A stretch of DNA of 64,000 nucleotides, taken from NCBI GenBank assembly GCA_030837965.1, contig JAUTXP010000013.1, positions 11,080 to 75,079 of the forward strand, in the 5' to 3' direction. Below are positions 44,357 through 58,278 of the stretch, one piece after another. A program made the translations under genes and the position numbers. The DNA is from Acidimicrobiaceae bacterium. Its GTDB lineage: Bacteria > Actinomycetota > Acidimicrobiia > Acidimicrobiales > JAUTXP01. Positions within the stretch are counted from its first letter, which is position 1, and every line of letters starts with the position of its first letter. The notes under the pieces were generated by a model. That model saw only the letters and a list, made by a program, of their open reading frames with translations. It was not told the DNA's origin and made no database searches.

Positions 44357-44384
44357 GTATCGCCTCACCGGGCATCGACCTTGA
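44357..44384 (-). promoter_or_regulatory. Sigma-28-like promoter (leaderless) for minor pilin operon
   Basis: TCAAG-N17-CGATAC then 7 nt to ATG 44349. Confidence 0.75.
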
Positions 44385-44470
44385 GGGCCGTTTGCGCCCT
44401 TACGCGGCCATCCTCGCCCGCCCCTTCGCCTCGCATCCCTTTCTCGGCATGACAGTCACGCCTGTGAGGC

Positions 44471-44489
44471 GAACTGAGCCTGACGAGAA
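44471..44489. promoter_or_regulatory. 19-bp motif GAACTGAGCCTGACGAGAA shared with 51630-51648
   Basis: 18/19 identity between two intergenic regions, each upstream of a pilin promoter. Confidence 0.55.
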
Positions 44490-44585
44490 CGAGAGGGGCA
44501 AATGCATCCCGGTGCGTGGGCACCGAGCCCCGGACGCGGCGAGGGCGCCCGTGCGGGCGCCCTCCAGAGCCGCAGGTCCGCCCGC

Positions 44586-45293
44586 CTACTTGACGACCTG
44601 CTCCCCCTTGCAGAGTCGGAACTGGTCGTCGCCGAACAAGAAGCGCCCACACCCGTCCGCCTGGGACAGCGACACGGCCTTGAAGCTGGTGGCGAAGACC
44701 TGGCCACCAGCCACCTTGTAGACGGTGTCGTTGACCTTGACGTTGGCCACGACCTTGCCGCCCTCGCTGAACACGTCGAGCAGCGACACCCGCTGGCCCC
44801 GGCTGGGCTCAGAGCTGCCGCCCGAGCCGGTCCCGGTCGAGCCCGTGCCGGTAGAGCCGGTGGACCCAGTGCCGGTCGACCCAGTGCCGGTTGAGCCCGT
44901 GCCCGTCGTGCCGGTGCCAGTGCGGCTGGTGGTGACCCCGGTACCCGTCCCGGTCCCGGTCGAGCCCGTGCCGGTGGTGCCGGTGCCCGTCGAGCCCGTG
45001 CTGCCCGAGGTGGACGACCCGGTGGCGCCCCGCAGCGGGACGAACGGATTCTTGGTGTTGAACACCTCGAACGTCTCCGCCGCAGCCACGGGGGCAGTCG
45101 TCGCCGTCGGCGAGCGCACCGTGGTGGGCGTGCCCGACAACGTGGTGGGCGTGGTCGTGTCGTTGCTGCTGTCGCTGCCCAGCAGGGTGAAGGCCAAGAA
45201 CCCGACGATGATCACGCCCAGCACGGCGACCAGGATGCCCAGGGCGCGTCGGTTGCCAGCGGAGCCCGGCGGTGCGGGCATGGGCTCGGTCAC
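44586..45293 (-). CDS. Membrane-anchored protein with (TGSTG)n linker; PilP-like position
   Basis: N-terminal TM helix, KNPF motif, long Thr/Gly/Ser repeat, small C-terminal beta domain with two Cys; follows pilO. Confidence 0.75.
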   Translation of the reverse strand: MTEPMPAPPGSAGNRRALGILVAVLGVIIVGFLAFTLLGSDSSNDTTTPTTLSGTPTTVRSPTATTAPVAAAETFEVFNTKNPFVPLRGATGSSTSGSTGSTGTGTTGTGSTGTGTGTGVTTSRTGTGTTGTGSTGTGSTGTGSTGSTGTGSTGTGSGGSSEPSRGQRVSLLDVFSEGGKVVANVKVNDTVYKVAGGQVFATSFKAVSLSQADGCGRFLFGDDQFRLCKGEQVVK

Positions 45294-46063
45294 GGTCGGG
45301 CTCCGGTCGTCGAGGTGGTGGCGCCCGGTGCGGTCGTCGTGGTGGCGCCCGCCGCGCCCGGCGCCGTGGTGGTCGTGGCCCCGCCCGCGGCCGTGGTGCT
45401 GGTGGTCGATGGCGTGGCCGTGGCCCCTGCAAACCCGGCAGGGATGGACCGCACGAACATGCGGGCGTTGATGCTCGCCGTCAGCGCGCCGGTGTTCGGG
45501 TCGGCGTTGACGTTGAGGGCGTCGGTGACCACCAGTCGGGGCAGGCGGTCGAGCCGGTTGAGGAAGTCCATCACCTGGAAGTACCCGCCCTGCACCTGGA
45601 TCACCAGGGTGACCTCAGCAGGTGGGGTCGCCACCGCCGCGGGCGGGGTCGCAGTCGTCGCCGCCGTAGTGGGGGTCGTGCCCGACGCGGGGGCGGTGGT
45701 CGGCGTGGGCGTCACCACCGCGGTGGCCGGGGCCTTGGGCTCGCTCGGTGCAATGGACATGAAGTTGATGCCCGACTTGGTGGCCGCGTCGTTGACGTCG
45801 ACCAAGAACTGACCGAGGTTGGGCGTGTCAGGGATGGCCGTGCGCAGCGTCTCCAACTGCGCCCGGCGCAACGGTTCGGATGCCCGCACGTCGCGCAGCC
45901 GCCTGACCTGAGCCTGGAGCTGCTGCTCCTGGGCCTGGGCTGCGGCCGTTCGCTTCTTGGCCTTGTCCAGATCGCTCTTGGCCGGGCTCCACAACAGGAG
46001 GTACCAGCCCAGGAGGATCACCACCGCGGCGATGGCGGCGAAGAGGATGACGCGCCGACTCAC
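45290..46063 (-). CDS. pilO: Type IV pilus assembly protein PilO
   Basis: TM plus coiled coil, AIPDTPNLGQFL, GGYFQVMDFLNRLDRLPRLV. Confidence 0.85.
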   Translation of the reverse strand: MSRRVILFAAIAAVVILLGWYLLLWSPAKSDLDKAKKRTAAAQAQEQQLQAQVRRLRDVRASEPLRRAQLETLRTAIPDTPNLGQFLVDVNDAATKSGINFMSIAPSEPKAPATAVVTPTPTTAPASGTTPTTAATTATPPAAVATPPAEVTLVIQVQGGYFQVMDFLNRLDRLPRLVVTDALNVNADPNTGALTASINARMFVRSIPAGFAGATATPSTTSTTAAGGATTTTAPGAAGATTTTAPGATTSTTGARP

Positions 46064-56937: not shown

Positions 56938-56948
56938 GACTTAGGAAT

Positions 56949-56976
56949 GGATCGGCACGTCGGGGCGGCGGCTAAG
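56949..56976 (-). promoter_or_regulatory. Sigma-28-like promoter for pilB
   Basis: CTTAG-N17-CGATCC (GCCGATCC); weaker -35. Confidence 0.5.
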
Positions 56977-57033
56977 GGCCATTTTCCGCGAACTCTTCGC
57001 GCCACCCCGTCGGGCTGCGTTGACCCGCGCAGA

Positions 57034-58218
57034 CTACTGCCGGACGGAGGAGAGGAACTTCAAGAGCAGGCCGCGGTTCAGCGGCTCCTCGCTGTCGCCT
57101 TCGGGGGTCGAGCCCGCGGCAGCGTCGGCCTTGCCCTCGGTGTCGGCGTCGGCCGCCTTGTCCTTGGGAGTGGGCCCGCCCGCGTCCGCCTTCGCCGACT
57201 CTGCCTTGGCAGGCTCTGCCTTGGGCGGCTCGGCCTTGGCGGGTTCGGCCTTGGGAGACCCGGCCTTGGGCTTGTCGGCCTTCTCCGCGCCCATGGACGC
57301 CAGTTGGCTCACGAGCTGCTTGGCCTGGGCCGCATCGACCTGGGCATCTTCCTTGGGCCGGGCCTTGGGCTTGGGCGCAGGGGGCTCCTGGCCCGGGGGG
57401 ATGGGGCTCAGCCGGTCGGTGGTGGTGAGGGCGGCAACCCGCACGGGCTCGTCGGGCAGCGCCTTGCGCTTGAGCTCGGGCTCGATGACGGGCTTGGCCG
57501 CGGCCCTGACCGGCTCAGGCTCAGGCTCAGGCTCGGGCTCGGGGGCTTGGTCTTCGTCAGTCTCGGACTCGGCCTCGGGCTCAGCCTCGGCGACGGGCTC
57601 CGGCGCCGGCTCCGGTTCACGCTTGGGCGCCTCGGCCTTGGCCGCGGGCTTGGGCTCGGCCTTCTTGGGCGCAGGGGCAGGCGGGGCCGTGATCTCGGCT
57701 ACGCCCGACTCCACCAGTTCCTTGAGGGCCTTGCAGGCGCCGTACTCGCCCAGTCCCAGGCGGTCGGCCACTTCGGACACGCAGGTTGCCCCGGCCACGG
57801 CCACCACCATCCGCCACTGGTCGGCGGCCAAGGTCACGTGCGGATCGCTGAGGTCGTCGACCAGCATCACGCCGTGGTCCATGGAGGGCACCACGGCCTC
57901 GATGGCCCGCCACTCGGTCAGCCGGGCCTGGGCCTCGAGCAGGAGGGGCTCGATGTCGACAGGGTCAGTCGGCTCGTCGGGGCGCTTCTCGGCGTCGAAG
58001 CTGAACTTTCCGCTCGTCAGTCGAAGCAGTTCGAACACGGCGTCGACGAAGCTGTCGGCCCGGCCCACGCTGGCCGCCACCACCCGCCCATCGTCCAGAT
58101 GGACGCGGCCGTCCAGCCTGCCGCCCACCACCCGCAGTTCGCCCGTCTTCTTGGTGGCAGCCAGAAGCGCCATCACGTCAGGCAGGGCAAATGTCTCAAG
58201 CGTTCCGTGCAACGACAC
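57034..58218 (-). CDS. DUF4388 (PatA-N-like) domain protein with PEAK-rich linker
   Basis: SLHGTLETFALPDVMALLAATKKTGEL..GKFSF..LLLEA; GTG 58218 after GGAGG; C-terminal LNRGLLLKFLSSVR helix. Confidence 0.82.
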   Translation of the reverse strand: MSLHGTLETFALPDVMALLAATKKTGELRVVGGRLDGRVHLDDGRVVAASVGRADSFVDAVFELLRLTSGKFSFDAEKRPDEPTDPVDIEPLLLEAQARLTEWRAIEAVVPSMDHGVMLVDDLSDPHVTLAADQWRMVVAVAGATCVSEVADRLGLGEYGACKALKELVESGVAEITAPPAPAPKKAEPKPAAKAEAPKREPEPAPEPVAEAEPEAESETDEDQAPEPEPEPEPEPVRAAAKPVIEPELKRKALPDEPVRVAALTTTDRLSPIPPGQEPPAPKPKARPKEDAQVDAAQAKQLVSQLASMGAEKADKPKAGSPKAEPAKAEPPKAEPAKAESAKADAGGPTPKDKAADADTEGKADAAAGSTPEGDSEEPLNRGLLLKFLSSVRQ

Positions 58219-58250
58219 GGCTGACCTCCGGGCAACGACGACCTTCGCAA

Positions 58251-58278
58251 CCATCGGCAGGATCGGCCCTCGACTTCA
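58251..58278 (-). promoter_or_regulatory. Sigma-28-like promoter at head of pilus locus
   Basis: TGAAG-N17-CGATGG (GCCGATGG). Confidence 0.6.

Follow-up and report, generated by a model that had tools for sequence, protein, structure and literature searches.

Putative WhiG-type promoters and c-di-GMP riboswitches among the type IV pilus genes of an uncultured Acidimicrobiales-like bacterium

Which sigma factor directs transcription of the type IV pilus genes in an uncultured Acidimicrobiales-like actinobacterium, and does cyclic di-GMP (c-di-GMP) take part in their control? The question is raised by a two-block motif that recurs through a pilus locus that is encoded on the minus strand and flanked by aroE (58351-59289) and aroC (40082-41242). 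The locus is part of a 64,000-nucleotide (nt) stretch of DNA with 70% GC, hereafter the window, on contig C51 of a 3.55 Mb genome assembled in 88 contigs with 97.9% completeness. Positions given without a contig name are those of the window. The nearest relatives of its PilB protein, 74-79% identical, are found in metagenome genomes labelled Acidimicrobiales, Acidimicrobiia or Actinomycetota, which makes an uncultured member of the Acidimicrobiales the most likely source of the DNA. A first-pass annotation had described the motif as a sigma-28 (FliA/WhiG)-like promoter present in about eight copies and had proposed a dedicated pilus regulon. Judging from motif geometry, conservation and homology, the repeats in the pilus locus are very probably promoters read by RNA polymerase carrying WhiG. 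Three of them are followed by matches to the c-di-GMP-I riboswitch.

The repeated motif in the pilus locus

All eight copies are present in the minus-strand sequence where the first-pass annotation had placed them, and as predicted promoter elements seven of the eight were confirmed. Six sites are strong according to a scoring matrix built from 16 predicted leaderless sites distributed over the genome. TCAGG-N17-CGATAC (55041..55068), in front of the pilT-like gene, scores 23.7 bits, the top value of the whole genome. TCAAG-N18-CGATAC (51425..51453, 20.4 bits) stands before the first riboswitch-pilin unit, and TCAAG-N17-CGATAC was found at 50613..50640 (19.5 bits), 49768..49795 (14.7 bits) and 44357..44384 (19.6 bits). 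The sixth strong site, TCAAG-N16-CGATGT, occupies 48038..48064 (20.0 bits). Three of these promoters are predicted to give leaderless transcripts. Two ATG codons, at 55033 and 44349, do lie exactly 7 nt past the CGATAC blocks ending at 55041 and 44357, as had been noticed before, and the third case is GTG 48029, located 8 nt past the CGATGT ending at 48038.

The seventh site has a variant -35 element, TGAAG-N17-CGATGG (58251..58278), precedes a DUF4388 gene and scores 13.9 bits. In nine aligned orthologous regions TGCCGA is conserved in 9/9 and CTGAAGT in 7/9, and the spacer varies. The ATG contained in CGATGG belongs to the -10 element, and the Shine-Dalgarno (SD) sequence together with GTGTCG is conserved in all nine sequences, with GGAGG preceding GTG 58218. 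Because the two promoter blocks are conserved, the site was retained despite its weak score; the DUF4388 gene most likely starts at GTG 58218. Other matches of at least 17 bits occur in the window only at 34500 (plus strand) and 38960 (minus strand), both inside called genes. A weak match at 44467 (15.0 bits) was inspected and rejected.

Repeats of this kind could be a by-product of pilin cassette duplication or a chance pattern of GC-rich DNA, with no promoter function. Three of the four exact copies do stand in paralogous pilin units, the leaders of which are alike after the -10 element. However, the spacers of these three copies differ while both blocks are kept, and the remaining sites stand before unrelated genes. 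A check of chance frequency also came out in favour of the first-pass annotation: TCAAG-N16-18-CGATAC occurs four times in the window, and none of 100 shuffles that preserved the dinucleotide composition contained it. Genome-wide (3.55 Mb) there are seven exact copies, including the four in the pilus locus.

Variation of the spacer length served as a composition-matched control. TCAA-Nk-NNCGATA was found genome-wide 11 times at k=16 and six times at k=17, while 18 other spacers between k=8 and k=27 gave 0-6 occurrences with a mean of 2.8 (Poisson P ~7e-5 for the excess at the two spacers). For the start-codon and matrix counts, k denotes the number of bases between TCA and CGAT. Cases in which a called start codon lies 6-12 nt past the CGAT of TCA-Nk-CGAT were counted over the genome: there were eight at k=18 and eight at k=19, whereas 22 other spacers gave only 0-2 apiece (P ~1e-10). 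A start codon thus coincides with the expected +1 position, which fits the prediction for leaderless transcripts. Matrix matches of at least 18 bits numbered 16 (k=18) and 19 (k=19), while 17 other spacers gave 0-7 each. When the loose TCA-Nk-CGAT pattern was counted in intergenic DNA, the noise was too high for the counts to be of use. The spacer-length and start-codon controls both oppose an origin by chance.

The positions of the sites are also conserved in relatives with PilB proteins 60-79% identical to that of the window. In 12 of the 17 loci of relatives, the pilT-like gene is preceded by a site that ends 8-10 nt upstream of the start inferred for the gene. Among 12 loci with pilT-like orthologs in further genomes of the order, the start could be located in eight, and all eight have a CGATA -10 element (CCGATA in seven, GTCGATAG in one) ending 8-10 nt upstream, with a clear -35 element in four to six of them. 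Matching sites precede the ortholog of the gene behind site 44384 in relatives L011 and L035. In Acidiferrimicrobium sp. IK (locus L048), a cultured relative with the same arrangement, a site of 24.3 bits follows aroE and another lies 8 nt upstream of the pilT-like start codon. In the promoters of the riboswitch-bearing pilin genes both blocks are conserved in relatives, and the spacers are variable. Taken together with the shuffles and the spacer controls, these data make duplication or chance a very improbable explanation. Start-codon geometry, matrix counts and conservation of the blocks but not of the spacer, three lines that we consider independent, indicate a predicted promoter.

The two blocks might instead be the half-sites of a DNA-binding regulator, such as the HTH_17 protein encoded in the locus; another HTH_17 gene lies downstream of a site elsewhere in the genome. 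Against this, the blocks are neither a direct nor an inverted repeat of each other, and the constant distance of 7-9 nt from CGATA to the start codon in 16 genes is predicted for a -10 element and not for an operator. Since the match to the sigma-28 consensus is in addition specific, an operator is hardly to be expected here, and promoters remain the preferred explanation.

Consensus match, sigma factors and RsiG

The motif can be written as cTCAAg-N16-nnCGATA, with its two blocks arranged as in the WhiG consensus T(A/C)AA-N16-GCCGATAA known from the literature; the bases before CGATA are GG, GC or TC. According to the rule given for WhiG2 by Denis et al. 2026 (bioRxiv 10.64898/2026.01.14.699351), the -35 element T(A/C)AA is followed after 16 nt by the -10 element GCCGA(TAA), the central CGA being invariant and no more than one mismatch tolerated in GC. 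This rule is obeyed by five of the eight sites, which have a spacer of N16-17 (51453, 50640, 49795 and 44384) or N15 (48064). Site 55068 departs from it by having TCAG combined with a perfect GCCGATAC, site 58278 has TGAA, and site 56976, with CTTA, fails.

A gene for the factor expected to read such promoters was found on another contig (C41:12974-13645). Its product was assigned to WhiG by the equivalog model NF004935 (388.3 bits versus a cut-off of 343) and by TIGR02479 (283 versus 189.6 bits), is about 70% identical to WhiG of Streptomyces venezuelae and matches Protein Data Bank (PDB) entry 6PFJ with an E value of 4e-101. The DNA-reading regions of the two proteins are nearly identical. 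Residues K57, G61 and R62, which contact c-di-GMP, and T235, L236, Y239, E240 and L242, which contact the anti-sigma factor RsiG (Denis et al. 2026), are all identical to those of 6PFJ chain A. Of 41 genomes from this order, the present one among them, 33 encode a WhiG that scores above the family cut-off. No match to FlhA or FlgM was found in the 97.9% complete genome, and for this reason the sigma-28 factor should not serve a flagellum. The sigma-28 (FliA/WhiG) assignment of the first-pass annotation is therefore supported by the consensus fit, the WhiG equivalog, the start-codon geometry and the phylogenetic footprints.

The exact RsiG signature E(X)3S(X)2R(X)3[Q/H](X)3D was not found in any plausible open reading frame (ORF), either among the called proteins or in six-frame translations. 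Three relaxed candidates with a single motif were rejected, as they had no RsiG match in PDB. When both motifs were required and each was allowed a single mismatch, a 179-amino-acid (aa) RsiG homolog (C83:29190-29729) emerged. It aligns almost from end to end with the RsiG chain of 6PFJ (E 5.7e-15), and it also matches Rubrobacter RsiG (7LQ2-4) with an E value of 3e-5. In this twin-motif protein the first motif carries A in place of E, and the second N in place of D. No NCBIfam model matches it, and its gene is not adjacent to whiG. Twin-motif RsiG has been reported in three of four Acidimicrobiales species (Schumacher et al. 2021, PMC8325347). The genome thus probably encodes a c-di-GMP-RsiG-WhiG switch, the function of which we infer from homology.

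Several points weigh against WhiG as the reader of these sites. The -35 elements are mainly TCAAG or TCAGG instead of TAAA, and CGATA in the -10 element is frequently preceded by GG, not GC. The scores of the leaderless sites are partly circular because the matrix was trained on leaderless sites, and the gene calls were made by a self-made codon-usage caller of our own. The claimed site before pilB, CTTAG-N17-CGATCC (56949..56976), fell away: it scores only 1.6 bits, no conserved block is present across nine relatives, and only L021 and L035 are similar by eye. pilB probably shares a transcript with the DUF4388 gene. Binding of c-di-GMP by the RsiG homolog is not assured because each motif has one deviation. 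Finally, a second sigma-28-like factor (C24:17693-18619), 34% identical to WhiG and lacking the RsiG-contact residues, could read some or all of the sites because its -10-reading region is largely common with WhiG.

This paralog, reading the sites in place of WhiG or alongside it, is the main rival explanation, and we consider it rather unlikely. Its best family is FliA/WhiG (TIGR02479, 176.8 bits), it keeps the RI-GA-DELRS-DW-RSVR stretch in common with WhiG, and orthologs scoring 157-206 bits are encoded in many relatives. A WhiG-type site of 20.3 bits located 192 nt upstream of its own gene would suit autoregulation, and Denis et al. 2026 could not separate the target motifs of WhiG1 and WhiG2. 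On the other hand, the site before the paralog gene is equally compatible with a cascade from WhiG to the paralog, and the protein falls below the family cut-off of 189.6 bits. The WhiG encoded on C41, by contrast, is nearly identical in its DNA-reading regions to the S. venezuelae protein, for which the consensus from chromatin immunoprecipitation sequencing is the one matched here, and all ten genomes with c-di-GMP-I riboswitches carry WhiG above the cut-off. WhiG therefore remains the preferred candidate for the reader of the pilus sites.

Predicted c-di-GMP-I riboswitches behind the promoters

The promoter part of the first-pass annotation stood, while the c-di-GMP-I riboswitches behind three of these promoters had been overlooked. 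On the minus strand, an aptamer at 51315..51406 was identified by the Rfam model RF01051 (54.4 bits versus a gathering threshold of 35). Those at 50502..50593 and 49656..49747 match the GGC variant model RF03167 with 60.2 and 60.4 bits, respectively, versus a threshold of 59; the former also scores 59 bits with RF01051. Each of the three tandem-pilin aptamers begins about 20 nt after CGATAC, and compensatory changes were observed in the second stem among eight aligned leaders. The three promoter-riboswitch-pilin units (49067-51453) represent a tandem triplication. The riboswitch-controlled pilin of relatives is closer to the pilin-like gene 51688-52185 of the window, which has no riboswitch.

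Six aptamers are present in the genome itself, and 24 more were found in nine of 40 relatives. Using the published promoter rule with the -35 element starting 30-70 nt upstream of the aptamer, a WhiG-type promoter was detected before 5/6 aptamers in the own genome and 16/24 in relatives, a total of 21/30 in ten genomes, versus only one of 253 control windows. Most of the aptamers failing the rule are one base off by eye, and two have nothing. The pil loci of the named relatives contain seven riboswitches in nine loci, and six of these riboswitches have the strict motif starting 44-55 nt upstream.

The ORFs located 3' of 25 riboswitches outside the window were analysed with Pfam. They encode CAP-domain proteins (10), pilins (6), glycosidases (3), SdrD-like proteins (2), and one each of a GGDEF, a beta-helix and a RuvC protein, with a single ORF assigned to no family. 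The RuvC ORF lies 258 nt from a promoterless aptamer. On contig C6 (49556-50836), a c-di-GMP-I riboswitch is located 2-12 nt before a gene that encodes a pilin-like fn3 protein of 396 aa and has a paralog in the window at 43114-44349; this riboswitch is preceded only by a CGATAG -10 element, with no clear -35.

Folding of three leaders and alignment of eight revealed neither a U-run terminator nor a clear SD-sequestering helix, and the minimum free energy z-score was -0.19. A WhiG promoter and a c-di-GMP riboswitch in series were not found in the literature searched by titles and abstracts. Our tentative suggestion, which could well prove wrong, is that in this order c-di-GMP-I riboswitches sit almost only behind WhiG-type promoters, so that c-di-GMP would act twice in series on one transcript, at first on the sigma factor by way of RsiG and afterwards by way of the aptamer. 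The conserved promoter-riboswitch series is the part worth following up.

Locus organization, wider regulon and known systems

The genes of the pilus locus, all on the minus strand, begin with the DUF4388 gene (57034..58218; Pfam DUF4388, 3.3e-19). It is followed by pilB, encoding the extension ATPase with an MshEN domain (55252..56937; T2SSE 5.5e-144, MshEN 1.5e-23), a gene for a PilT-like ATPase with an N-terminal MshEN domain (53435..55033; T2SSE 3.6e-47, MshEN 8.3e-16) and pilC (52200..53423; T2SSF 3.5e-65). The N-terminus of PilB carries what we take to be two near-complete copies of the published MshEN motif. Directly 3' of pilC lies the pilin-like gene (51688..52185), which has the N-terminus FSLIELMVVVLIIAVL, no Pfam match, and no promoter or riboswitch of its own. 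Three paralogous type IV pilins of 165 aa each are encoded at 50734..51231 (N_methyl 7.4e-09), 49916..50413 and 49067..49564, all with a Pfam N_methyl match, followed by pilD for the prepilin peptidase (48165..48935; A24_N_bact, Peptidase_A24). The pilM-side operon is opened by a gene for a DNA-binding HTH_17 protein (47772..48029; HTH_17 6.1e-17) and continues with a PilM/PilN fusion (46060-47772; PilM_2, PilN), a PilO-like protein (45290-46063; PilO) and an unassigned ORF found by gene calling (44586-45293). The last genes encode a large pilin-like protein of 411 aa with N_methyl and fn3 domains (43114-44349; Pfam), an ORF known from the gene call (42449-43120) and a DUF7305 protein (41301-42458; Pfam).

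Two repeats were observed near these genes. A short CCCCGCC-type simple repeat (55225-55250) lies directly 3' of the pilB stop codon. Together with a palindrome it parts pilB from the pilT-like promoter, which in close relatives overlaps the 3' end of pilB. The palindrome, of 31 nt (CTTTTCCACAGC-loop-GCTGTGGAAAAG, with the loop in either orientation), has about 170 copies in the genome, eight of them in the window: 48134-48164, 55167-55197, 58313-58343 and those starting at 1798, 7592, 10450, 14415 and 17742. It is mainly intergenic, often found at contig ends, and resembles an element of the repetitive extragenic palindrome type or a miniature mobile element. With a T-run in front and an A-run behind, the palindrome is no standard terminator. 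The palindrome adjoins three of the sites, and its possible role as an operator was rejected, given that the approximately 170 copies are spread over the genome.

The WhiG sites would split the pilus locus into at least seven transcription units. These may comprise the DUF4388 gene, probably with pilB; the pilT-like gene with pilC and the pilin-like gene; each of the three tandem pilin genes on its own; pilM, pilN and pilO behind the HTH gene; and the gene of the large fn3 pilin with the genes after it. Three units would be leaderless, with the start codon at the expected transcription start. By analogy with Streptomyces and Rubrobacter, RsiG could sequester WhiG at high c-di-GMP and switch the whole regulon off. 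The riboswitches would then act on the pilin transcripts as a second c-di-GMP checkpoint after initiation, and the MshEN domains of both ATPases may provide a third one at the protein level. In this scheme WhiG as the reader, control by RsiG and c-di-GMP in this organism, and the sign of the riboswitches are all inferred.

The proposal that the regulon is dedicated to the pilus did not hold, since about 30 further candidate sites were found elsewhere in the genome. The matrix gave 74 matches of at least 16.5 bits at k=18-20, of which 35 are mostly outside called genes and have a same-strand start no more than 300 nt downstream. Pfam analysis covered 37 downstream genes outside the window, 30 from the matrix list and seven from the strict-motif list. 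They include genes for a second PilB-like MshEN ATPase, predicted to be leaderless, a second DUF4388 protein and four GGDEF-EAL proteins. The latter are enriched (4/37 versus about 26 GGDEF loci in 3252 called genes; hypergeometric P ~2e-4), and for one of the four the distance to the site is 467-493 nt. The list continues with two histidine kinases, one HATPase_c protein, two response regulators, a SpoIIE-HATPase protein, WhiB and the sigma factor gene on C24. It further comprises two Ig-repeat (adhesin-like) surface proteins, two subtilases, three cell-wall enzymes and a CAP protein. The set also contains an HTH_17 protein, a few others, and 11 genes without an assigned family. This content mirrors that described for Rubrobacter, where 5 of 12 mapped promoters precede diguanylate cyclase or phosphodiesterase genes (PMC8325347).

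Control of type IV pili by WhiG is already known, and what is new here is the lineage. The closest parallel is the (RsiG)2-(c-di-GMP)2-WhiG pili switch of Rubrobacter radiotolerans, where WhiG likewise comes from a non-flagellated, non-sporulating actinobacterium (Schumacher et al. 2021, PMC8325347). Several WhiG-type promoters in the pil cluster (three in Rubrobacter), targets among diguanylate cyclase and phosphodiesterase genes, and an RsiG homolog are common to both. As that article presents its system, the differences are the Acidimicrobiales-like lineage, the twin-motif RsiG with one deviation per motif, -35 elements that are mainly TCAAG or TCAGG, and the at least three predicted leaderless units found here. 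In addition, the pilin transcripts carry c-di-GMP-I riboswitches here, while the word "riboswitch" is absent from PMC8325347. Transcription start sites were mapped in that work, whereas in our case the starts are predicted from sequence, and a search for RNA runs covering positions 48900-55300 listed none.

The WhiG2 regulons described by Denis et al. 2026 resemble this one in the consensus T(A/C)AA-N16-GCCGA, in the conserved contact residues for RsiG and c-di-GMP, and in target classes, which include type IV pili, c-di-GMP enzymes, regulators and sigma factors. The families with pilus targets named there are Cellulomonadaceae, Cryptosporangiaceae, Sanguibacteraceae, Rubrobacteraceae and Jonesiaceae. 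The terms "Acidimicrobi", "riboswitch" and "leaderless" do not occur in the main text of that preprint, although further taxa may be given in its supplementary tables. The classical FliA/SigD flagellar promoter, for which PMC8325347 quotes TAAA-N15-GCCGATAA, shares the -10 core CGATA, the -35 TnAA and the spacing. Unlike that promoter, the sites analysed here have C at the second -35 position and belong to a genome with no flagellar gene set, as judged from the lack of FlhA and FlgM matches.

Riboswitch control of a pilin also has a parallel among Gram-positive bacteria. In Clostridioides difficile, the leader of the major pilin gene pilA1 reportedly contains a class II c-di-GMP riboswitch behind a housekeeping promoter. 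The present system is similar in having a c-di-GMP riboswitch in a pilin leader, and differs in the class I aptamer, the WhiG-type promoter and the three tandem copies.

Until now, the connection between WhiG and pili had been mapped in Rubrobacter and Actinoplanes only. The present analysis extends it to an uncultured Acidimicrobiales-like lineage and provides a concrete list of about 35 candidate sites for the regulon. At the leaderless sites the transcription start is predicted to the exact nucleotide, and these sites could be used to calibrate promoter prediction in high-GC actinobacterial metagenome genomes. If c-di-GMP does act twice in series and the aptamers are ON switches, the arrangement would work as a band-pass or pulse circuit, so that pilins, CAP-domain proteins and glycosidases would be produced only within a certain range of c-di-GMP. 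This range would be the one in which WhiG is still free and the riboswitch is already occupied, and cells would be carried through it by the GGDEF-EAL enzymes that belong to the regulon.

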